From the sequence record PQ567651.1: 64,000 bases of DNA. One strand, written 5' to 3'. The notes under the pieces were generated by a model. The model saw only the letters and a program-made list of their open reading frames with translations. It was not told the DNA's origin and did not search any database. The position numbers and the translations under genes were made by a program. The stretch comes from Escherichia phage cardinal. Numbering within the stretch: the stretch's first letter is position 1; every line of letters begins with the position of its first letter. Positions 6,009-55,391 of this stretch are shown piece by piece.

Positions 6009-6203
6009 TCAATAAAAGTTGAAAAAACCTTCAGCATCCAAGCTAACTTTTGCGAAAGTTGGATAAAGCGTGTATATAGCAACTTCTCTGTCTCCATCTT
6101 TAGCTGCTCTCTCAATATACGCGTAGATATTTTGTAAACTCTCCTTTGCTTTGTTAAGTTCTGCGTTTTCTGCCAGTTCTCTCATTTTATCTGCTACAGT
6201 CAT
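6009..6203 (-). CDS. hypothetical protein
   Basis: 64-aa ORF. Confidence 0.45.
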   Translation of the reverse strand: MTVADKMRELAENAELNKAKESLQNIYAYIERAAKDGDREVAIYTLYPTFAKVSLDAEGFFNFY

Positions 6204-10157: not shown

Positions 10158-10844
10158 TTATTTAACGTGTTTTAGCAATTCAATGTTGGCAGAATAGTTT
10201 TCACCACAATTAGTAACGCTCAACAGTGACCATTTACAAGAGAATACACCTTTTAGATGATCTGGAACACACATCAGCGGAACATAAACTGTTTCTGAAT
10301 CTTGTGTTTGCTCTGTTTTGTTAACATTGCAACAAAATGGCAATACATCATCATGAATCATTTTACATTCACTCAAATTATCTAACATATGTGAAACTTG
10401 TTCTGAAGTTTCAAACATTTGTGCTTCACAAGCCAGCGCACCAACCACTTGATAAGCCTCTCCACACAAATCTTCTAGTTCTAAAATACGTTCAGACATA
10501 GCTTCGATGATTGCTGATCGTGCTTTCACCTTAGTTTCTGCTTCTTTAATTTTCTTCTCAAGTTCTGTAATGTACTTCAGTAGTGCACTAACAACATCTG
10601 GAGTATTTTCTTGATCATCTTGGGAAATTTTTACCAAAGAAGAAGCTGCTTTGCAGCGCACTTTAGGCTCTACGTAGCCAAAAGTCATATTTTCCGAAGA
10701 AGATTGTTGTGAAAACCAGTGTTTGTTCGAAGAAAACACAGGTTCATCTTCAAACCAGAACACATCTCCAGTGATATCACGAGCCATGAAATTTGCATTG
10801 TCTGGAACTTCGTAACGATGCCCTTCAAACATAATCTCTTTCAT
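10158..10844 (-). CDS. hypothetical protein
   Basis: 228-aa ORF; start overlaps upstream stop. Confidence 0.55.
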   Translation of the reverse strand: MKEIMFEGHRYEVPDNANFMARDITGDVFWFEDEPVFSSNKHWFSQQSSSENMTFGYVEPKVRCKAASSLVKISQDDQENTPDVVSALLKYITELEKKIKEAETKVKARSAIIEAMSERILELEDLCGEAYQVVGALACEAQMFETSEQVSHMLDNLSECKMIHDDVLPFCCNVNKTEQTQDSETVYVPLMCVPDHLKGVFSCKWSLLSVTNCGENYSANIELLKHVK

Positions 10845-11254
10845 TACACATCCTCCATTTGGAACATCTTCTTGTGGTTAGAATAGATCTGTTTGAAAAT
10901 CTTGTCAAGGCGTTCATATGATTCTTTATGCTCTTGTTTCCATCCATGATTTCGGATTTTATCTGCCAGGTCATAAGCCTCGCATAAAACTTTGGCAAAG
11001 TTGGTATTATCTATAGCACAAGCCTCAAAACCTTGAACTAAACCCTCTACATCATACCACGTATAGTCAGAGTCACTAGGAGTCTTTCCTGCATCGGCTA
11101 AACGTTGCCTCACCCATTCGATACGTTTTTCATTTAAATGGCACTTACCTTCTCTACACTCTTGTTCTAATTCTTCTTTAGATTCGTTGAATGGGTGAAG
11201 GACAGGAAGTTCTGCTTTTTGCAATTGCTCCAGGTATTCACCTACAATGCGCAT
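10844..11254 (-). CDS. hypothetical protein
   Basis: 136-aa ORF. Confidence 0.55.
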   Translation of the reverse strand: MRIVGEYLEQLQKAELPVLHPFNESKEELEQECREGKCHLNEKRIEWVRQRLADAGKTPSDSDYTWYDVEGLVQGFEACAIDNTNFAKVLCEAYDLADKIRNHGWKQEHKESYERLDKIFKQIYSNHKKMFQMEDV

Positions 11255-11258
11255 AGCT

Positions 11259-11426
11259 TCACTGTGTACACTTTCTGCCTGTGTGCCAATAACGGAAGAT
11301 ACTTTCTGTTAAACAGATGTTTTTACTAAACATCGCATTGTCTTTAACATTCGATCTATTAACCCAGTCTAAGTAATATACATAAAACTGCAATAATTCA
11401 TAACTGCTTGGTATAACTTTACTCAT
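11259..11426 (-). CDS. hypothetical small protein, 55 aa
   Basis: strong AAGGAGAGG RBS; not in ORF track. Confidence 0.45.
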   Translation of the reverse strand: MSKVIPSSYELLQFYVYYLDWVNRSNVKDNAMFSKNICLTESIFRYWHTGRKCTQ

Positions 11427-12686: not shown

Positions 12687-12699
12687 TTTATTATTCTCC

Positions 12700-12999
12700 T
12701 TAATACCAGTCTACGATCACTGAATCTACAAAGCCCTCTTTGGTGTTTAAAGCATACACCTTACTAAGCCCATGCTCTCGTAGTGCTTCCATAGCAAGAT
12801 CAATCAAATCAACTTGTCGTTTCTTTGCTTGTTCATTTTTTGGATAGTCATCCAAACCGAAAACAGACGGTTTAAATGCTTTGGAGTATTTGCCAGTTTT
12901 AGCCTGATCATAACAGTCCTGAATAATTTCCTCAATAGGAAACCATAAACCTTCTCCACTTTGCTTTGCAATACAGCGCAGTTTTTCTGTAATAGTCAT
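12700..12999 (-). CDS. hypothetical protein
   Basis: 99-aa ORF, AGGAGAGG RBS. Confidence 0.5.
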   Translation of the reverse strand: MTITEKLRCIAKQSGEGLWFPIEEIIQDCYDQAKTGKYSKAFKPSVFGLDDYPKNEQAKKRQVDLIDLAMEALREHGLSKVYALNTKEGFVDSVIVDWY

Positions 13000-24424: not shown

Positions 24425-24484
24425 GGCGGGAAACCATTTCCCGCCCTATGTGATACATCTTATCAGATTAAAAAACGTTGTCAA
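24425..24484 (-). promoter_or_regulatory. promoter + 5' stem-loop cassette
   Basis: TTGACA-N16-TAAGAT then gtatcacatag-GGCGGGAAATGGTTTCCCGCC. Confidence 0.65.
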
Positions 24485-24785: not shown

Positions 24786-25169
24786 AGTGTGCGCCTTATA
24801 GAATGATTGAAACAACAATTGCTACAGTGATCCACACTGGAACGGCTAACAAAATAGCGTTAATCGTTCCAACCGTCAAGCTGTTTTCTTTCTTGATCAT
24901 CGTTATCAACCTTTTATAAGTAATGTTATTGTGACGGTGGATTGTGGAGATCCTCACCTTTGCCCGTCCTGCATTGCGCCCTCCTTTTGTTTATTGTCGT
25001 TGTGCCTCGCCCCCCTCGACAAGATGAATAATACGCTACCAGGTGAGGAACGTCAACCCCTTTTTTAATCTTTTTTTCATTTCTTTTTTTTGCTTGCTAT
25101 CTATAAAGGAAAGGGCTATTATCTTTCTACCACGCCAACCAGGGCGCACATCAAAGAAAGGGCGATACC

Positions 25170-27082: not shown

Positions 27083-27538
27083 TCACGATCCCACATTCCC
27101 ATTTTTGATACCATAAATAGAATCATAAGGGCTTGCCTCTACGAACTCCTTATCTGCGTAAGCGATAAGTTTATTTTTGAGATCTTCATTTTGTGTGTAT
27201 TTAAGATACAAACCACGTTTGACAATCTTCTCCCGTAAAGAAGTCCAGGTATCTTCATCATAATCTTTAACTAATCTGCCTAGACGTTTATAATATGCTT
27301 GTTCTTTTTCTCCTGTATATCTTAGATCTCCGGTTAAAATAGAAGATGCAATATTGTAATCATAAAACAAACATGCTTTTCTCCACATCATATATTGTTC
27401 CACACAAGTAAATTCGACAGAACTTGTGATAGAATTATTATACTTGGGAGCTAAAGGTTCAATAAAAGATGATAGATACCAGTTGCTAAATTCATCTTTT
27501 GCCGAGAAAAAGAACACATACTTGTCAGTAATCCGCAT
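27083..27538 (-). CDS. NADAR (YbiA-like) domain protein
   Basis: YVFFFSAKDEFSNWYLS, FTCVEQYMMWRKACLF, EFVEASPYDSIYGIKNG align with E. coli YbiA motifs. Confidence 0.75.
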   Translation of the reverse strand: MRITDKYVFFFSAKDEFSNWYLSSFIEPLAPKYNNSITSSVEFTCVEQYMMWRKACLFYDYNIASSILTGDLRYTGEKEQAYYKRLGRLVKDYDEDTWTSLREKIVKRGLYLKYTQNEDLKNKLIAYADKEFVEASPYDSIYGIKNGNVGS

Positions 27539-28936
27539 TTACACCTCCTTATTGTATACTAATTTGCCACCATATTGTGTAACAATTTTTTGAAGATTTT
27601 CCAAATCAGAAACACTTACTGTTTCTGTATGACCATCTTTCAACTCTCTTGCCGTTAAAATACCAGTTTTTAATTTTTTCTTTATAGCTCTTTCAGCAGC
27701 CTTACATTGTTTCACTGTGCTAAAATCATATAAACAAATACGCTCCATAGGAAACATATTACAGCTATTTTGACGTTTTAATCGACTATCACTATTTTTA
27801 GCTATACCAAACTTAAGAGCAACTATAATATTATCATCCTTAACAATATTAATATATAACTGCTGCTGACTATGACCAGCACACATAGGACAACCTCGAC
27901 CGTGGCTTAATAAGGCATTAGCCCTCCCTGTCTGTTCCCCATGCACAAGACAAAGATATTTAAACTTACCGTGACTTCTAGACGGTTTACCGATCCAACC
28001 TACCCAGACATACCCTTTCCCTTCTACTTCCTTTTTTACCCTGTAGGTAATCTGATTTTCTGTATAGTGATAACTAGTTGCACAGCGGCAAGGGATACTT
28101 CCTTGTTTTAGGGGCCACCCTTTAGAGTAAAATTTACCATCGCAAACACCTGCTTGAACATATTCATCATGGGAGCAAACAGGACACTCAACCATCCATA
28201 CTGCATCACGCTTGTTACGTTTCCCTGTATTGGTGAAGATAGTGCCTTCCTTAAATTTCCCTGTAGAAAAGAAATCTGCAATATGTTGATCGTCGGACAT
28301 TGTTAGTGCCTTCCTTGTATTCTCATACCTACATAAAGGACAACCATAACCACGTTTAAAATTGTTAATACTTGTAGTATCCCATTTATAACCACAGTGA
28401 CACAACAAATCAAGTTTTGTTTTATGTCCTTTCCATTTTCCAACGTACCCTAACACCTGATACCCCTTCTTCTGTGCTATCTCTTCCAAGATCGGTAATT
28501 CTGTTTCCCATGCTAACGGTTTATTACTTGCACATGCCGGACAACCACGTCCATTCCTAAAATCAATAATGTTTGTGGTGTTCCACTCTCCATGTTTAGG
28601 GCAAATTATGCGAATTTTTGTTCGCACACCTCGCCACTCCTCGGCAAGACCTATAAAAGTAAACCCTCTTTCTTTAGCAATATCAACAAGGGAGATACAT
28701 TCCTTTTCTTCTGTTACTTTTCTATGACCATTGCAATCGGAGCAACATTTACCGCCTTTAGTTTTAAATACATTGATTATGGTACTTTCCCACTCTCCAT
28801 GATCAGAGCAAGATAGCTTAAGCCTAGTCCTGCTACCTTTCCATTCACCAACATAACCCAAGATTTGAATATTGTGATTTTTAGCAAGGGGTATTAATTC
28901 TTCTTTATATTGTTCCCATGATTTTAGTGCTACCAT
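27539..28936 (-). CDS. Cys/His-rich triple-repeat protein with C-terminal GIY-YIG-like (T5orf172-type) domain
   Basis: three modules of form GYVGxWKG..TKL.L.C..HGEW.T..I..F..G.GCP.C; C-terminal LYINIVKDDNIIVALKFGIAKNSDSRLKRQ. Confidence 0.45.
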   Translation of the reverse strand: MVALKSWEQYKEELIPLAKNHNIQILGYVGEWKGSRTRLKLSCSDHGEWESTIINVFKTKGGKCCSDCNGHRKVTEEKECISLVDIAKERGFTFIGLAEEWRGVRTKIRIICPKHGEWNTTNIIDFRNGRGCPACASNKPLAWETELPILEEIAQKKGYQVLGYVGKWKGHKTKLDLLCHCGYKWDTTSINNFKRGYGCPLCRYENTRKALTMSDDQHIADFFSTGKFKEGTIFTNTGKRNKRDAVWMVECPVCSHDEYVQAGVCDGKFYSKGWPLKQGSIPCRCATSYHYTENQITYRVKKEVEGKGYVWVGWIGKPSRSHGKFKYLCLVHGEQTGRANALLSHGRGCPMCAGHSQQQLYINIVKDDNIIVALKFGIAKNSDSRLKRQNSCNMFPMERICLYDFSTVKQCKAAERAIKKKLKTGILTARELKDGHTETVSVSDLENLQKIVTQYGGKLVYNKEV

Positions 28937-29010: not shown

Positions 29011-30139
29011 TTAAAACACACTTGCCAAAGTTGCACCATTGGTGATAGTTGGTTCCAGAACAATACGGAAAGAATCTTCTGGATCATCACTAAACACAAC
29101 GATTTTACCGCCTGTAATAAGGTCTGCTTTCATTTTTGTCGCATTCAATGGAATTCGAGCATCTCCTTCATCATCAAAAACCACGTAAGAGCTATTAGCA
29201 AGGGCTTCTTTAGAGTCTGCATCACTTGGAGATGACAAGTACACGTCTAGTGTGCACGAACCACCTAAAAAGATTGCAGGTGTGAAGTTATGCCAACTAG
29301 ATACCCAGCTAACTTTCTGAAGTTTTCCATTAATAACAACGCTGCTGATATCCCATTTATTACCACCACCTAAAGAAACACCCATCATAGAGATGCATTC
29401 TTTAAAGGATAAATCAGGGTAGAAATTAAGTTCTTCTACTATACCTTGGATCACATCAAAGGACAACTCTAAACTTACATCCCAAAGTCTTTGGAAATTA
29501 TCAAAGTGTGCTTTGTTATCCAGGTTTTTATCTAAATAGTCAATCATAGTTTCTAGTGAGATTTTATCATAATTAAAATTATAAAACACACGACTAGGAC
29601 GATTTAAAAAGAATTCAGAGATAAAACCACTGTTTTTAGTCAGAATAAACAGTTTATTACCACTGCCAGTACCATCTAACAAAGTGAGAAGTGCTTCTTG
29701 ATCTTGTTTCTTCTCATACACTTTATCAAACTCGTCAAAAATAATCACTGCTTTGTCGGTGATCTTGCTAATAAGTTCAATGAAATTAGCATCGCTGTAG
29801 GCTTGAGTAACCATAATAGTTGGAATACCTTCTTCTACAAGGTCACGACTAATGAGTTTGGCTAACATAGTTTTACCACTGCCCTTAGTTCCTGTCAGGA
29901 GCAAACCTGTATTTTTACCTTGTGCACTCCGGCGATGGAATGTACGAATAACGTGATTTGCTCGTTTTTCTGTTTCACCATACAGAACATCCGGTACACC
30001 TGTTAGATTACCACGGCTTAAAAAAATAATTGCCAAGGGGATCACGACTAACAGTATAGAATCCAGGTGGAAGATAGTTAGATTCCACGCCCATATCTTT
30101 ATTTACACTTACAATATCACCATAAATCGTGTATTTCAT
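29011..30139 (-). CDS. P-loop ATPase, paralog of 45151-46311, interrupted by a frameshift at a T7 run (~30020-30026)
   Basis: Walker A TGTKGSGKT, Walker B VIIFDEFDK; N-terminal 40 codons (ATG 30139, AAAAGGGG RBS) are in another frame and restore paralog alignment if one T is removed. Confidence 0.5.
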
Positions 30140-33752: not shown

Positions 33753-33959
33753 ATGGATATTACTACACTAAAGTTTATACTTCTCTTCTTACTTATAGTT
33801 ATAGGCTTAATTGTTATACCCTATCTATATGTCTACATGTTATCTCGTAAGTATGGTTATGAGCGTATACCATTTTACTATTTAATACCTGTCTTAGTTA
33901 TCTATCTATTTCTCTTTTGTAGATATTGTCCTGAACTAGTCCTGAACATTGGAAGTTAG
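33753..33959 (+). CDS. small membrane protein
   Basis: 68 aa, two hydrophobic helices. Confidence 0.5.
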   Translation: MDITTLKFILLFLLIVIGLIVIPYLYVYMLSRKYGYERIPFYYLIPVLVIYLFLFCRYCPELVLNIGS

Positions 33960-36995: not shown

Positions 36996-37472
36996 ATGTC
37001 TAAACGTTTTGGTCGTAATCAAAAAAGAAAGTTAAGTGCTCAACTAGCAGCTTTGCAAAAAGAGGTTAACACTTTACAAAAAAGTGTTTGTGAACTTAAG
37101 GAACAAAACCAACTTGAAAAAGAGTGTATCCAGCTTACACAGGAAGTTATTGGTGAGTATTTTCCTTCACTAGTTCCTAAGAAGGTGGCTCTTAGGGAAA
37201 ATCTACCTTTTACCTTGTCCTTAATGCAAGCAAATGATAGATTCCAAACTGAAACTGATGATTTGATGTTTGCAATGCATCAATTACATGGTTTAGAATA
37301 TACAGCACAAGTGGATAAACTTCGTAACATGTTATATGTGCGGGTAGAAACACCTAAAGGTGAGACAGTAGCTTTTAATTATAATTTCCAACAGCTACCT
37401 GATCATATTATTGAACAAATTTTAAAACGAGATTTTGTTCCTATGCTTGTTAAACAAATTAAGAGAGGTTGA
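36996..37472 (+). CDS. hypothetical protein (coiled-coil N-terminus)
   Basis: 158-aa ORF. Confidence 0.5.
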   Translation: MSKRFGRNQKRKLSAQLAALQKEVNTLQKSVCELKEQNQLEKECIQLTQEVIGEYFPSLVPKKVALRENLPFTLSLMQANDRFQTETDDLMFAMHQLHGLEYTAQVDKLRNMLYVRVETPKGETVAFNYNFQQLPDHIIEQILKRDFVPMLVKQIKRG

Positions 37473-37473
37473 A

Positions 37474-40248
37474 ATGGCTAAGAAAGAGTTGAGCTTCACT
37501 CCGACAGAAGAGCAAACAGCTATTAAGGAGGCTTTTCCAGATCATCGCTTTTTAACTATCCAAGCTAAATCTGGATCAGGTAAAACGTCAACACTTTATT
37601 TGCTGGCTAACAGTACAGAAGATCGCATTCTTTACTTAGCTTTCAATAAAAGCATGGCAGAAGAAGCACGACGTAAGATGCCACCAAATGTAGAATGCCG
37701 TACATTGCATTCTATTTGCTATCAATTCCTGGATCATCGTTTACGTGCAAAACTGTCACGACCAGAAGGACAGTATGTTAACGTTGCAGGTACAGGTAGC
37801 GAGATAGCAAAGAAATTTAAGATTAATAATCTTATTGATAAACGAGGGAAAACACTTTTAACTCGTGCTATGATTGGTTTAATGATCAAGCAAACCGTAG
37901 GTAAGTTTGAATTTTCGGATGATCCTTTTATCAGCCGTAAACATTTTCCTAGTGTACATCTTGCAGATATTAAAAGAAAAGGTATTAACGAACACAAACT
38001 AATTACAGAAGTAGTTAAGTATGCAAAACAATTGTGGCGAGAGCGCATCGATCCTAACACAGATACTTTGATGACGCATGACACCTATGTAAAATTGTTT
38101 GAATTGTCTGGTGCTGATCTTGGTTATGACATTATTTTTGGGGATGAATTCCAGGATGTTAACCCTGCATTCTTGTCTATTCTGCGAAATGCTAAATCTG
38201 CAAAACAAATTGTGGTAGTTGGCGATGAATTCCAATGTGTGTCGGAAAACACGGTACTTAACACCGAGAATGGTCAGGTTACAATGAAAGACCTGCAAAT
38301 CGGTGATAAGGTAGAGTCTTATTCTAATGGTAAAGTTACATTTAGAAAAGTAACAAATAAGACTTTATCTACACGTACAAAAGGTAGGAATATTATTACT
38401 GCTACAGGTAAAACTTTAGATATGACACATAACCATCGTATTTGGGCTTCATCCTATGTTCTGAAAGATGACCAGATGGTGGTATACCTAATGTGGAGGA
38501 AAGATTTAGGTTTCCGAGTAGGGATCACTAACAAATTCGATGATAAAGAAGGTTTTTCTAAACTGGGGCAACGTACACGTTCTGAAAAAGCACAGAAATT
38601 ATGGGTGTTGGACATTGTTGAAAATCGCGAAGCTGCTATGGAAAAAGAAATGGCATACAGTTTACAATATGGCATTCCTACTTGTGTATTTGAAGCAAGT
38701 TCACGCGGCATTAATCAAGAAAGGATCAATAACATCTTTGAACAATTCGGACAAAATGGTTTTAAACTTTTAGAGGATAAAGATTATCATTTTGCTTATC
38801 CACACTGGCACAGCATCAATTGTGCAGTAGATGAAAGAAAAATGCTAACAGTGACTTTGCGAGCACAAAGTTGTAAAGGAACACAAGTTAGTTTTGAGTG
38901 GACAGAAAGTGAAATGCCGATCTATTCTTCACTGATTAAAGCAGGTGTAAGCGTAAGTGCTGCTAAATTGGAAGGTCGTTACCGTGTACGTAAATATTTC
39001 AATTCTTATCGTGAAGCATTGAGTTTTGCACAAAAGATCCTTGAAATAGTTCCGTTTGCATCTTTAAAAGAATGCATGTCCTCTGTGAACAGTGCCAAAT
39101 ATAACTTAATTCCGGCAGCGGGTTTGTTTAAAGGCATGTCTGTGTTGGTAAAAGATGGTGATACTGTAACGGCAGAAGAGATTGTGGATATTGTAGATAG
39201 TGAGGGTATCTATTATGATATTGAAGTAGAGGATACTGCTAACTTCTTTGGCAATGAAATTCTTAGCCACAACTGCATTTATCAATTTAGAGGTAGCTCT
39301 AATATGATGATTGAAACAGCTAAGTATGGGGCAGAACTTCCATTAACTGCTTGCTTCCGTTTTGGCCCCAAAGTGGCAAACATTGCCAATATGATTTTAA
39401 GCGATAAAGAACCTTTGCGTCATCCTTTGGTTGGTAAAGGCTTTGATACTGTAGTAGGTAGCTACAAATCAGATGTTGTAGACTATACAAAACCTTACAC
39501 TATCATCTTTCGCAAGAATTTAACCTTGCTTATGGAGGCAATGGATCGTATTGCAGATGGGGAAGAAATTATTATTAACGTAGATACCAGGGATTTTATC
39601 TCTATGGTAGATAGTGTTAATGCTCTTCGGAGAGGAGATATTGAGAAAGTAAAACATGAAACTGTATTACCTTACGCAGACTGGGATGAATTTGTTGAGT
39701 GTGCAGAGGCTGATCCAGATGCTAAACGCTTGTTAAACATCGTAGTTTCTGGTAAGGCGAACACCATAGCACATACACTTAGAACGCACAGAAATTCTCC
39801 TACAGCAAAAGTCACACTTACTACAGCACACAAGTCTAAAGGTTTGGAGTGGGATCAGGTTATTGTTGCTAATGATTTTCCTTCCAACTATGATAAAAAG
39901 ACTGGTGAATGGGTAGGACTAGAAGAGGCAGAGCGAAACCTACTGTATGTAGCGCATACCCGTTGTGTTAAATGCTTACAATGGAACACAACCGTACAGG
40001 AGATTATAGATATCAATCGTGTTGCAACAGAGAAAGTACCAACAAGCACCACTTTACCGATCAATGGTATTAAACTTGGTGTATTTGGCGCTGGCACATC
40101 TCGAAAAACTGTAGAAAAATTTGTTGCAGATTCTTTTGATGGTAACTATAATCATGCACAAGCATATGAGAGTTGGTTAGAGGAAGGTGAAGGTGATTTT
40201 TTAGGTGAAATAAATCTTTTACCAGACATAAATAAACTGGTAAACTAA
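37474..40248 (+). CDS. SF1 (UvrD/PcrA-like) DNA helicase containing an intein
   Basis: Walker A AKSGSGKTSTL, motif II FGDEFQD, motif III VVVGDEFQ|CIYQFRG split by 346-aa insert; AAGAGAGG RBS. Confidence 0.8.
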   Translation: MAKKELSFTPTEEQTAIKEAFPDHRFLTIQAKSGSGKTSTLYLLANSTEDRILYLAFNKSMAEEARRKMPPNVECRTLHSICYQFLDHRLRAKLSRPEGQYVNVAGTGSEIAKKFKINNLIDKRGKTLLTRAMIGLMIKQTVGKFEFSDDPFISRKHFPSVHLADIKRKGINEHKLITEVVKYAKQLWRERIDPNTDTLMTHDTYVKLFELSGADLGYDIIFGDEFQDVNPAFLSILRNAKSAKQIVVVGDEFQCVSENTVLNTENGQVTMKDLQIGDKVESYSNGKVTFRKVTNKTLSTRTKGRNIITATGKTLDMTHNHRIWASSYVLKDDQMVVYLMWRKDLGFRVGITNKFDDKEGFSKLGQRTRSEKAQKLWVLDIVENREAAMEKEMAYSLQYGIPTCVFEASSRGINQERINNIFEQFGQNGFKLLEDKDYHFAYPHWHSINCAVDERKMLTVTLRAQSCKGTQVSFEWTESEMPIYSSLIKAGVSVSAAKLEGRYRVRKYFNSYREALSFAQKILEIVPFASLKECMSSVNSAKYNLIPAAGLFKGMSVLVKDGDTVTAEEIVDIVDSEGIYYDIEVEDTANFFGNEILSHNCIYQFRGSSNMMIETAKYGAELPLTACFRFGPKVANIANMILSDKEPLRHPLVGKGFDTVVGSYKSDVVDYTKPYTIIFRKNLTLLMEAMDRIADGEEIIINVDTRDFISMVDSVNALRRGDIEKVKHETVLPYADWDEFVECAEADPDAKRLLNIVVSGKANTIAHTLRTHRNSPTAKVTLTTAHKSKGLEWDQVIVANDFPSNYDKKTGEWVGLEEAERNLLYVAHTRCVKCLQWNTTVQEIIDINRVATEKVPTSTTLPINGIKLGVFGAGTSRKTVEKFVADSFDGNYNHAQAYESWLEEGEGDFLGEINLLPDINKLVN
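38236..39273 (+). mobile_element. intein (346 aa) in helicase motif III
   Basis: N-terminal CVSENTVLNT (block A), TLDMTHNHRIW (block B), C-terminal YYDIEVEDTANFFGNEILSHN then +1 Cys. Confidence 0.75.
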
Positions 40249-42583: not shown

Positions 42584-43441
42584 ATGACCCAAAAACTATA
42601 TGAGGATGTAATCGGATTCCTCGAACAAACATCCGAAGAATTTACTCGTGAAAATGCAAACAAACCTGCAATGATTGTTAATACTCACCGAGATTTACTA
42701 GCAGGTATCCTAAGCAAGCACATGGCAATGACCCATATTTTACCTGAAGATTTAGCAGAATGGCATAAAAGTGGGTATGGTCACATCCACGATTTAGATT
42801 ATTTACTCTCACCTTTAACTAATTGTTGCCTGGTAAATTACCAAGATATGCTTGAGAACGGTTTCCGTATTGGTAATGCACATATTGAAAAACCAAAATC
42901 TATCGGTGTAGCGACTACTGTCCTAACTCAAATTATTCAAGCAGTAGCTTCTAGCCAATATGGTGGACAAACTTGTGCACATGTTGATACTGGGCTTAGT
43001 CAATACGTTAAAGCAAGTTTTAATAAAATATATGCCGATGTTGGCGATTATGATATTGCTATGCGTATGGTAGATAAACAGGTCTATGATGCAATGCAAA
43101 CTTTAATCTACCAGGTGAACACTCTAATGAGTGTAAATGGTCAGTCACCTTTTATAACAATTAGTTTAGGTTTGGATACCTCTGCTTTTGGTAGAATGAT
43201 CACTAAAAACTACCTAATGGTGCACAAACAAGGATTGGGAAAAGATAGGGTAACTCCTGTGTTTCCTAAAGTTATCTTCTTCTTGGAAGATGGTGTTAAC
43301 ATGAAAGCTGGCGATCCAAACTATGATTTGAAGCAACTGGCAATGGAGTGTTGTGCTGAACGCATTTATCCTGATTTTATCTCTGTACCTTTAAACAAAG
43401 AAGTTACAGGATCTTCAGATGGTCGCGTCACAAGCATGGGT
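42584..43441 (+). CDS. nrdD: anaerobic ribonucleoside-triphosphate reductase NrdD, exon 1 (3' boundary approximate)
   Basis: N-terminal NrdD-like sequence ...GYGHIHDLDY...; frame hits stop inside intron. Confidence 0.75.
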
Positions 43442-43688
43442 AAACTATAACTGCTCATGTAAAATCTGCCTAAACGGGGGAACTCTCAACGAGACAATCC
43501 CGTGCTAAACGTAACAGAACTCCCAACACAGAAGAAGGGGGGTACTATTACGAAATGCCTAACGACTAGCTGTGATGAATGTAGCAGCGTAGGGTGTAAG
43601 CCTATGACACCCCAAATGGTAGACATGCTTTAAGCATGAAGATATAGTCTGATCTGCATGGTGACATGCAGCAGCACGTAATGGTGCG
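43442..43688 (+). ncRNA. group I self-splicing intron (ORF-less) in nrdD; boundaries approximate
   Basis: aaatctgcctaaacggggg...gagacaatcccgtgctaaa...aatgcctaacgacta...aagatatagtctga.ctgcatggtgacatgcag resembles the T4 nrdD (sunY) intron core as recalled from memory. Confidence 0.7.
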
Positions 43689-44663
43689 GGAGTGGCCTTG
43701 CGAGCCACTTTGAACATAATGTGTAGAAGTTTCTTGTCATACTATGCAACAGAGCAAGGTGAAAAATATGATGGTCGTTTCAACTTAGGCGTAGTTTCTT
43801 TAAACTTACCTATCATTGCAGCAGAGTCCCGTGAAAAGGGCATCTTATTTACTGAACTGTTGGAACAACATATGGAGATGGCGTATAAGGCACATATGCT
43901 ACGTGTTAACCGTATTAGACATACCAAAGCATCTCAAAACCCTACATTGTTTATGGAAGGGGCTTTAGCTCGACTAGAAGCTAATGAAGAGATTGGTAAA
44001 CTATTTGAAGGTGGTTATGCCTCTATTAGTATCGGTTATGTAGGTTTAGCAGAAGCTATGGAGATTTTATACCCAAATAACACCAATCCAAAAGCAATGG
44101 GTAAAAACATCCTTCAATATATGAAGGATATCTGTTGCACATTTAAAGAACGTTCTGGTTTAGCTTTTAGTTTGTATGGAACACCAGCAGAATCCTTGTG
44201 CTATAAATTTGCCAAAGCGTTAAATGATCGCTATCCTGGCTCTATTGATCGTGACTATTTGACAAACTCTTTCCATCAACCTGTATGGATGCACACTACC
44301 CCGTTCCAAAAGTGGGATTATGAGGAAGGTTTTGCACAAATTAGTAATGGTGGGAACATAGGTTATGTAGAAACACCAAACCTTAAAAATAACTTGCAAG
44401 CACTGGAAACTCTTGTAGATTATGCCTACAATAAAATTCCTTATTTTGGCGTGAACCAACCTGTAGATCAGTGTTTCAAATGTGGTTTTCATGGTGAATT
44501 TAAGGCAACAGCTAAAGGCTTCGAGTGTCCAAGTTGTGGAAATCATGAAGAAGAATCCATATCTGTGATCAGAAGAGTGTCAGGATACCTTTCTGCTCCT
44601 AACTCTCGCCCTTATAATAAAGGTAAGATGCAAGAGGTACTAGAAAGGGAGAAACACTTTTGA
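43689..44663 (+). CDS. nrdD: anaerobic ribonucleoside-triphosphate reductase NrdD, exon 2 (5' boundary approximate)
   Basis: NIMCRSF near exon start; C-terminal glycyl-radical motif RVSGYL and Zn site CFKCGFHG...CPSCG. Confidence 0.8.
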   Translation, partial: GVALRATLNIMCRSFLSYYATEQGEKYDGRFNLGVVSLNLPIIAAESREKGILFTELLEQHMEMAYKAHMLRVNRIRHTKASQNPTLFMEGALARLEANEEIGKLFEGGYASISIGYVGLAEAMEILYPNNTNPKAMGKNILQYMKDICCTFKERSGLAFSLYGTPAESLCYKFAKALNDRYPGSIDRDYLTNSFHQPVWMHTTPFQKWDYEEGFAQISNGGNIGYVETPNLKNNLQALETLVDYAYNKIPYFGVNQPVDQCFKCGFHGEFKATAKGFECPSCGNHEEESISVIRRVSGYLSAPNSRPYNKGKMQEVLEREKHF

Positions 44664-45150: not shown

Positions 45151-46311
45151 ATGTTTACAGTATTCGGCAATCAAATCTTTCTGCGTCAGAAATCTGGTAC
45201 AGATATTGAAGAAATTCCAGCAGGAACTTTTGGTGTAGGTGTTACTCAAAGTGGTGAGTTCTTCCTGTATCCTAAAAACGATATGGAAGTCCCTTCAGTA
45301 ACATACGGTGATACTGATGATAAATCAGAACGTATTATCAAAACGTTCCTTAGCCGCAAAGGTAAAAACACAGGTGTTCTCCTTGAAGGTACGAAAGGTA
45401 GCGGTAAAACTTTGCAAGCTAAAATGCTGTCTTCTGCTCTTCGTGAAATGGGTATTCCTACTATTTCTATCGGTAGTGCTTTTAATGGTGAAGGCTTTAT
45501 CAATTTTATGTCTAAAATCACACAACCTGTGATGATTATGATCGATGAATTTGATAAACTGTATGCTGAAAAAGATGCACAAGATGGTTTGCTTACCCTG
45601 CTGGATGGTGTTGGTGGCTACGACAAACTGTTTGTATTGACTAAAAATGATGGTTATGTATCAGAATTTTTGCGTAATCGTCCTAGCCGTATTTTCTACA
45701 GTTTTAGCTATAAGAAACTACCTAAAGCTACTATGGATGATTATCTGGCTAAAAATCTGGAGAACAAAGCCTTCTTACCAGACTTTGAAACGCTTTATAA
45801 TCTCTCCGTGGATTTGAACTTTGATATTGTTCAGTCATTAGTAGAAGAACTTAACCGTTACCCTAATGACAAATTTTCTGATGCACTTGCACTAATGGGT
45901 ATCAGTATTACTGAACACCGCTATGCTGCAAAAGAGGTTAAACTTCTGAAAGTTAACGGTGTAGATCGTACAGGAGATGTTTCGGCAGATACCGATATTG
46001 ACGGTATGACAGCACAAGGTTTGTTTAGTGGTAATCGTTATGTTGTAGCTGTAGACCATAAACTAGGTGAAGAGCATCTTCCTGAAATGGAAGGGATCGT
46101 TACCGTAGAAGATAAAGATGAAGAAGGTGACTACTACTGGGGTGTAGACCGTATCTTGCTAACGTATGATGAAAAACACATCCGTACAATGGGTGGTGAC
46201 GGTTATCACTTTATGTTCACCGATGATAAAGGTAACAACATTGAAGTTGTTATTAAAAACAAAGAACGTAAAAACTACACAGAGTATGTGTTTGGTGGTC
46301 GTTCTTACTAA
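45151..46311 (+). CDS. P-loop ATPase (paralog of 29011-30139)
   Basis: Walker A EGTKGSGKT, Walker B VMIMIDEFDK; collinear similarity to the minus-strand paralog. Confidence 0.6.
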   Translation: MFTVFGNQIFLRQKSGTDIEEIPAGTFGVGVTQSGEFFLYPKNDMEVPSVTYGDTDDKSERIIKTFLSRKGKNTGVLLEGTKGSGKTLQAKMLSSALREMGIPTISIGSAFNGEGFINFMSKITQPVMIMIDEFDKLYAEKDAQDGLLTLLDGVGGYDKLFVLTKNDGYVSEFLRNRPSRIFYSFSYKKLPKATMDDYLAKNLENKAFLPDFETLYNLSVDLNFDIVQSLVEELNRYPNDKFSDALALMGISITEHRYAAKEVKLLKVNGVDRTGDVSADTDIDGMTAQGLFSGNRYVVAVDHKLGEEHLPEMEGIVTVEDKDEEGDYYWGVDRILLTYDEKHIRTMGGDGYHFMFTDDKGNNIEVVIKNKERKNYTEYVFGGRSY

Positions 46312-54597: not shown

Positions 54598-55391
54598 ATG
54601 TCCAATAAAATCAGTCTTAAAAAACGTCAAGAAACTCTTACCGTATCTCTGCGTAAGAAAAAGATTAACGATGTTGTTCTTCGTGTCGGTAGCGCCTTAG
54701 ATATTTCGGGTAGTATGTGTGAGCTGTATCGTGATGGCACTGTTAGTGATTTTGTAGGTAAGCTGCTGCCGTTTGGTATGAAGTTTGATGATAATGCACA
54801 GATTGACATGTGGGCTTTCAATAGTTCTTCTTTTGAACTGCCTCCTGCAACGGCTGATGTATATGATGATTATGTCGGCTCTTGTATGTCTAACGTTTGC
54901 ATCAATGGTGGTACAGCTTATGCTCCAGTAATGCAAGAGATCTATGATACATACTTCGGTAGTGTACCTATGAAAAATATTACACGCGAAGTCGTTGAGT
55001 ATGAAGAAGTTCCGGCTAAGGGTTTCCTTGCTAAACTAACTGGTAAAAAGAACTTGTAGAAGTAACACGTACTGTTGTAGAACAGGTTGTAGATACTGAT
55101 GCACAAGTTGATCGTACTCCTGCAATGATTTTCTTCCAAACTGACGGGGAGAACATGGATACTTCAGCAGTACGTAGCTTACTGAACAAACACCGCAATA
55201 CGCCTGTTTACTGGTTTATGGTTGGTGTAGGTAATGCAAACTTTAAATTCCTGAAAGACTTGGCAAAGGAATACGATAATGTTGACTTTATCGGTATTGC
55301 AGATTTGTCCTTGTCTGATGAAGAACTTTACGATAAACTGTTATCCGAAGAGTTTGGTGAGTGGGTTAAAAAATTTGGAGCAAAAGCGTAA
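54598..55391 (+). CDS. von Willebrand factor A (vWA) domain protein (TerY-like), interrupted by a frameshift at an A5 run (~55045-55049)
   Basis: MIDAS motif ALDISGSM, NGGTAYAP; after TAG at 55057-55059 the domain continues in another frame (...MIFFQTDGENMD...). Confidence 0.6.

Follow-up and report, generated by a model that had tools for sequence, protein, structure and literature searches.

A private one-base expansion of a T run splits one of two paralogous ATPase genes in a phi92-like Escherichia coli phage sequence

One of two paralogous ATPase genes was split into two open reading frames in a 64-kb stretch of phage DNA, referred to below as the window. Comparison with related phages shows that the frame is broken by one extra base, private to the window, in a T6 run that is not itself conserved. 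A technical run-length error that arose before assembly, in base-calling or amplification, is the favoured explanation, with a probability of roughly 55%. A real and recent mutation is possible but less probable. Whether the extra T is technical or real, a programmed shift plays no part in decoding the gene.

The window was part of a phi92-like E. coli myovirus of the genus Justusliebigvirus, subfamily Stephanstirmvirinae. A 20-kb piece of it showed 96-97% identity to the phages alia, arall, VEcB and PaulScherrer. Within the 1.35 kb surrounding the split ATPase, identity to 55 GenBank phage records was 98-99%, and an exact copy of the window was absent from these records. The phage represents a real lineage of its own, and its substitution record is normal. 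The split gene, its paralog and the further genes affected by changes in repeat length are listed in Table 1.

Table 1. The split ATPase gene, its intact paralog and other repeat-length lesions of the window
Feature	Position	Strand	Difference from relatives	Gene (strand)	Remarks
ATPase N-terminal fragment, 43 codons	30139..30008	-			MKYT...GNYFFKPW-stop; ends at TAA reached only through the extra T
ATPase remainder, 344-codon ORF, +1 frame	30045..29011	-			begins MIPLAIIFLSRGN
T7 homopolymer (plus-strand A7)	30020-30026	-	one-base insertion		insertion site relative to every relative examined
Intact paralog, 386 aa, phi92 gp190 ortholog	45151-46311	+			directly downstream of nrdD-nrdG
NADAR-domain gene (183 aa in relatives, here 151 + 46 aa)	27102..27106	+	T5 vs T4	27098-27538 (-)	private, 0/47 relatives
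vWA-TerF-like gene (264 aa in relatives, here 153 + 88 aa)	55045..55049	+	A5 vs A6	54598-55391 (+)	private, 0/51 relatives
phi92 gp010-like ORF (194 aa, here 55 + 136 aa)	11258..11270, at 11263	-	(CA)2 vs (CA)3, 2-nt deletion	10844-11426 (-)	private, 0/36 relatives
Small gene, last codons (64 aa vs 82 aa in two other Logan contigs)	6022..6027	+	A6 vs A5	6009-6203 (-)	private, 0/4 relatives

The 43-codon and 344-codon ORFs overlapped at the T7 run, where the minus strand reads GGC AAT TAT TTT TTT AAG CCG TGG TAA. This run was one of only six homopolymers of at least 7 nt in the 64 kb. The downstream ORF lay in the +1 frame relative to the upstream ORF, so that dropping one T restored ...GNYFLSRGN... 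and gave a protein of 375 aa. The repaired protein aligned with the paralog over residues 3-256 at 47% identity (E 1e-81), ungapped at the junction. Unrepaired, the alignment to the paralog began only at residue 8 of the 344-aa ORF. Judged from these alignments, the likeness of the repaired ATPase to its paralog and family is far beyond chance. The sequence-only reading had described 29011-30139 and 45151-46311 as paralogous ATPases with a Walker A motif GTKGSGKT and a Walker B motif DEFDK, the first 40 or so codons of the minus-strand copy being in another frame and one T out of T7 restoring the alignment with the paralog. All of this was borne out. Both motifs were found in both copies and both proteins belonged to PHROG 2376 over their full length. 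The frame break was located at codon 40, in the last strand of the N-domain, and the 43-aa product is therefore an incomplete domain. From that last strand onwards, the 344-codon ORF encoded the rest of the protein: the AAA+ core with its Walker A and Walker B motifs and residues N169 and R180/R183, followed by helical lid and C-terminal beta domain. Its sole start was GTG with no ribosome-binding site visible upstream, and no plausible independent start was seen for it.

The repaired 375-aa protein was 100% identical to phi92 gp221, with no accumulated amino-acid changes, and this allele was the commonest, recorded on 323 public contigs. The 43-aa and the 344-aa products were each present on one contig only, and the split form was found in none of several hundred other contigs. 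A pseudogene, in the sense of a decaying gene, had been proposed from the sequence; it is not supported, since repair yields exactly the commonest allele, with no further disabling changes. In every annotated relative, the minus-strand ATPase was a single CDS of 1128 nt (phi92 gp221, alia gp101 and BME3 WWY66258). The gene and the paralog pair are already known and annotated in these relatives.

The PHROG 2376 profile ('ATPase') matched the repaired protein with an E-value of 6.6e-108, residues 1-367 aligning with profile positions 1-357 of 363, and the paralog over its full length with 5.7e-104. Against the Pfam family AAA (PF00004), whose cut-off (gathering score) is 21.2 bits, the repaired protein scored 38.9 and the paralog 29.4 bits. 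In a large protein collection, 295 homologues of the repaired ATPase were detected at E ≤ 1e-5, and nearly all of the 120 listed had lengths of 340-415 aa. Residues G83, G86, S87, G88, K89, T90, D135, E136, N169, R180 and R183 were invariant in 40 aligned homologues. From their positions, N169 would be the sensor-1 residue and R180/R183 the arginine fingers. Because the profile covers residues 1-367 and the N-terminal G7, P24 and L40 were nearly invariant across the 40 homologues, the N-terminal 40 residues are assigned to the conserved ATPase family. In an AlphaFold (AF2) model with a pLDDT of 87, residues 3-43 folded into an N-terminal beta domain of five strands; an AAA core with a helical lid came next, and a second beta domain formed the C-terminal part. 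When this model was searched with Foldseek, Bcs1 ranked first (E 7e-9) and YjoB, Rpt subunits and NSF came after it, every one of these matches having a probability of 1.00. The best PDB sequence matches were to the p97 D2 domain. The pair thus appears to consist of classical-clade AAA+ remodelling ATPases. Some GenBank records call the protein an 'FtsH-like protease / Zn metalloprotease', a name that finds no support, as a peptidase domain was not detected and the C-terminal part is a beta domain. No peptidase family was among the Pfam matches of the repaired ATPase at E ≤ 0.01, and no HExxH zinc site was seen when its sequence was read by eye.

The gene order in the window corresponded to that of the phi92 gp221 locus: gp220-like gene, ATPase, CapR/T5orf172 endonuclease and NADAR gene. 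The endonuclease gene adjoining the ATPase (27539-28936, minus strand) encoded five zinc-ribbon repeats of CapR homology and a T5orf172 domain. Its length in relatives was 990, 1191/1194 or 1398 nt, which suggests that CapR repeats are gained and lost among them. The exact 465-aa endonuclease protein was present on one public contig only. Two other genes of the window carried insertions. On the plus strand at 43396-43671, nrdD, the gene for anaerobic ribonucleotide reductase, was interrupted by a group I intron (Rfam RF00028; score 72.3 bits, E-value 2e-16) between exons at about 42584-43441 and 43722-44660. The nrdD gene is annotated as spliced at the same place in phi92 and is uninterrupted in alia and BME3. 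The UvrD/Rep helicase gene (37435-40248, plus strand) had an intein-like insertion at residues of about 275-613, with an Intein_splicing score of 32.8 bits, just below the cut-off, and weak Hint matches. This insertion of roughly 1 kb is missing from alia, and phi92 and PaulScherrer carry the long, intein-containing form.

The ortholog comparison proposed in the sequence-only reading was carried out, and the T7 run proved private to the window. An 81-nt segment at the run corresponded to 80 nt in 55 of 55 close GenBank relatives. A segment of 260 nt corresponded to 259 nt in every match listed among 99 records, which take in more distant phages, including Phapecoctavirus orthologs of roughly 67% identity. 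The site read T6 in BME3, KKP_3264, phiWec187, phi92, A150, PD211 and one IMG/VR contig, and had the synonymous TAC TTT TTA in alia, VEcB and two IMG/VR contigs. Deeper orthologs had TAC TCT TTA (phAPEC8), TAT TCT CTT (phiWec181) and TAC TTC CTG (Klebsiella phage KP2025), and the paralog had TTC TTC CTG at the homologous codons. In these alignments the amino acids are conserved at the site, and the T run itself is not.

Other split genes were first found by translating the alia CDSs against the window (Table 1). Repaired in the same way, the vWA-TerF-like and gp010-like proteins were exact existing alleles, the vWA allele being recorded on 306 contigs. In a reciprocal control, broken ORFs of at least 150 aa were present in 0/7 relatives, and broken small ORFs numbered 0-2 in each. 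The private 1-nt indels of three annotated relatives were all intergenic. By our own tally, the window had about 9 private small indels, compared with 3-4 in relatives over the same span. The N/S ratio of private substitutions was 0.49 in the window and 0.51-0.87 in relatives. On these counts, the private substitutions are under normal purifying selection and only the indels are anomalous, and the excess amounts to roughly five changes of repeat length, all very young and placed irrespective of coding sequence.

Several further differences were considered and set aside. The (CA) deletion at 11263 seemed common to two other samples, for which the same 136-aa product was called; their DNA has an intact (CA)3. 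A 14-nt deletion in a minus-strand gene start (12690-12700), which relative to 4/4 relatives removes the usual ATG and five codons at 12696, was not counted as a lesion; a ribosome-binding site sits 9 nt before an in-frame GTG, and the deletion is therefore probably a viable natural start-site variant. The frameshift at 33941 (T vs TT), which shortens an 88-aa ORF, was rejected as a private lesion. It is common to phi92 and absent from six other relatives and therefore looks like a natural polymorphism. Three intergenic runs were longer in the window, namely C7 (14964-14970), T7 (25071-25077) and T8 (25084-25091), against C6, T6 and T6 in those relatives with which they were compared, and alia annotates repeat regions that match the window at approximately 25-26 kb. 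Contigs carrying the 88-aa vWA fragment were rejected as sibling runs of the phage, since they came from unrelated samples and were contig-end truncations or messy assemblies. On the 134-kb Logan contig SRR31708054_197, a segment with the C-terminal part of vWA-TerF (105549-108815) had the opposite orientation to the flanking sequence, and one of its breakpoints lay close to the A run affected in the vWA-TerF-like gene of the window. Either a rearrangement or an artefact of the assembly graph would account for this.

A second assembly of the phage was available in Logan. The contig SRR33749226_0, which was reached via the exact endonuclease protein, showed the same splits into 43 + 344 aa and 151 + 46 aa in Prodigal calls. 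This Logan assembly was clean: its contigs 0 and 1 measured 72 and 63 kb. SRR33749226_1 covered the window up to 15480 and SRR33749226_0 started near window position 24426; the k-mer assembly breaks between these points, at about 15.5-24.4 kb. That the window might be a piece of SRR33749226_0 was rejected, as it spans the two Logan contigs and the gap between them and therefore comes from a separate assembly. The 25,302 nt fetched from both contigs were 100% identical to the window, including three lesions. Logan contigs are built from read k-mers seen at least twice, with base qualities dropped and no mention of a consensus or polishing step (PMC12424806).

Programmed recoding, which the sequence-only reading had offered as programmed slippage, would make the T7 run a functional slippery site, where +1 (or -2) ribosomal frameshifting or transcriptional slippage produces the full-length ATPase beside the short product at a fixed ratio. 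Re-pairing of tRNA-Phe by +1 on U UUU UUU A would give the exact wild-type ...GNYFLSRGN..., and U/A runs are known slippage sites (PMC1088944). However, the T7 was present in none of the 55 close relatives nor in the matches listed among the 99 records, and the T run is interrupted by a synonymous C (alia, VEcB and IMG/VR contigs) or replaced in the deeper orthologs and the paralog. A U UUU UUU heptamer is present in the zero frame, but a slip by -1 meets UAA as the next codon and does not enter the downstream ORF, which is in the +1 frame. In prfB, a slow or stop codon stands in the A site at the shift codon and a Shine-Dalgarno-like stimulator lies upstream. Here, no slow or stop codon occupies the A site, as AAG follows UUU UUU and the stop comes three codons further on, and inspection by eye found no Shine-Dalgarno-like (GGAGG-like) element upstream, in GAUCCCCUUGGCAAUUA. 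The 90 nt downstream folded no better than shuffled sequences (-15.7 kcal/mol compared with a shuffle mean of -17.0, z = +0.46). Both the known use of transcriptional slippage and the counter-selection against it centre on runs of 9, sometimes 8, which are conserved among homologues (PMC1088944), and the run of 7, with 6 or fewer elsewhere, falls short of these. Given the lack of conservation and of a slow codon, stimulator or structure, programmed recoding is considered very improbable. Still less credence is given to an artefact of the assembler only, in which the reads have T6 and a consensus step made T7. Homopolymer errors can indeed be introduced during polishing. Yet the SRR33749226 k-mer assembly, built straight from reads, has the identical T7 within 100% identity over 25.3 kb. 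Since an independent assembly without a consensus step carries the same run, the T7 is what most reads say and not an assembler glitch. The separate origin of the window led to this explanation being dropped and raised the weight of a real mutation.

The choice is therefore between a technical error, which the sequence-only reading had also named as a homopolymer sequencing error, and a mutation in the phage. In the favoured reading, the gene would be an ordinary 375-codon AAA+ ATPase gene of the phi92 gp221 type, in which a T6 run reads as T7. The extra T would have arisen in the reads by base-calling, or during amplification, and then entered both available assemblies; with it, the 64-kb window would contain about five errors of this kind. 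Anomalous indels beside normally selected substitutions are the pattern expected of run-length errors. Three repaired proteins match existing alleles exactly, so that every lesion must be extremely young. Four or five very recent frame breaks in universally intact genes are biologically rare, and this tips the balance towards a technical origin as a matter of judgement, not of demonstration. Against it stands the identity of the Logan assembly, whose clean contigs would fit accurate short reads; a majority T7 on accurate reads would be real, and so would the other lesions, whereas reads prone to error at repeats, or DNA amplified from only a few molecules, would make them all technical. Moreover, no single platform is classically associated with errors such as the 2-nt loss in (CA)3 and the T4-to-T5 gain. 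The alternative, held to be a substantial though lesser possibility, is that replication slippage recently extended T6 to T7, which became fixed or dominant in the stock and knocked out the gp221-like ATPase. Translation would stop after 43 codons, a loss that may be softened by the intact paralog and by RNA polymerase or ribosomes slipping occasionally on U7. The T7 would then be one of several slippage mutations in accessory genes, caused for example by a mismatch-repair-deficient host, heavy passaging or relaxed laboratory selection. The exact agreement of both assemblies speaks for such a mutation, and changes of +1, -1 and -2 in mono- and dinucleotide repeats are a classic signature of slippage in vivo. 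The damaged genes all have the appearance of accessory genes: besides small ORFs, they are those for NADAR, for vWA-TerF and for an ATPase that has a paralog. Relatives, too, have occasional broken small ORFs, and a truncated 74-aa NADAR form is present on 6 other contigs. The case for a real mutation is weakened by the absence of the split ATPase from other contigs and by the extreme youth of the lesions. Four or five events in 64 kb would also need a special history, as plaque purification would, by our estimate, fix far fewer. A more specific version, in which a real T7 is part of a burst of slippage mutations in the stock (from a mismatch-repair-deficient host or a defect in phage replication fidelity) and forms a leaky, not programmed, allele with a little wild-type protein made via +1 tRNA-Phe re-pairing or loss of a U, is regarded as unlikely.

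The main value of the result lies in quality control. The locus should be annotated as one 375-codon ATPase gene, flagged for a frameshift or possible sequencing error; annotation as two ORFs or as a recoding candidate should be avoided. The same flag fits the NADAR, vWA-TerF, gp010-like and small 64-aa genes of the window. If the lesions were real, the stock would be a natural multiple knock-out, and growth on the propagation host would evidently not require these accessory genes, one of the two ATPases of PHROG 2376 among them. This would be modestly useful for studying the function of this widespread ATPase pair.

The closest known counterpart of the split gene is phi92 gp221 (YP_009012554.1), labelled 'ATPase; predicted AAA domain fold; putative ATPase or Zn metalloprotease', with orthologs in Justusliebigvirus and Phapecoctavirus. 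Its ORF is uninterrupted, whereas the window copy is broken at codon 40 by an extra T found in no other record. The second ATPase ORF of the window lies at the same place after nrdG as phi92 gp190 (YP_009012522.1) and has the same length (1161 nt). Compared with the gp221-like copy, the gp190-type paralog has no T run at the homologous codons, and its C-terminal 120 or so residues fail to align. With the classical AAA+ proteins Bcs1, proteasomal Rpt, NSF/Sec18, p97/Cdc48 and Bacillus subtilis YjoB, the phage ATPase has in common the PF00004 score, Walker A and B and the fold, although it is only 14-20% identical to solved classical AAA+ structures. Unlike these examples, the 375-aa protein has just one AAA module, flanked by a small beta domain of its own at the N-terminus and another beta domain at the C-terminus, and it has no protease domain. 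As for the frame break, the slippage sites of Thermus dnaX and Shigella mxiE likewise have a break at an A/T homopolymer (PMC1088944). As in slippage-rescued genes, the ORF of the window ATPase would be restored if its mRNA lacked one U. The functional sites of the dnaX/mxiE type, however, are conserved runs of 9, sometimes 8, whereas the run in the window is 7 long and occurs in one sequence only.
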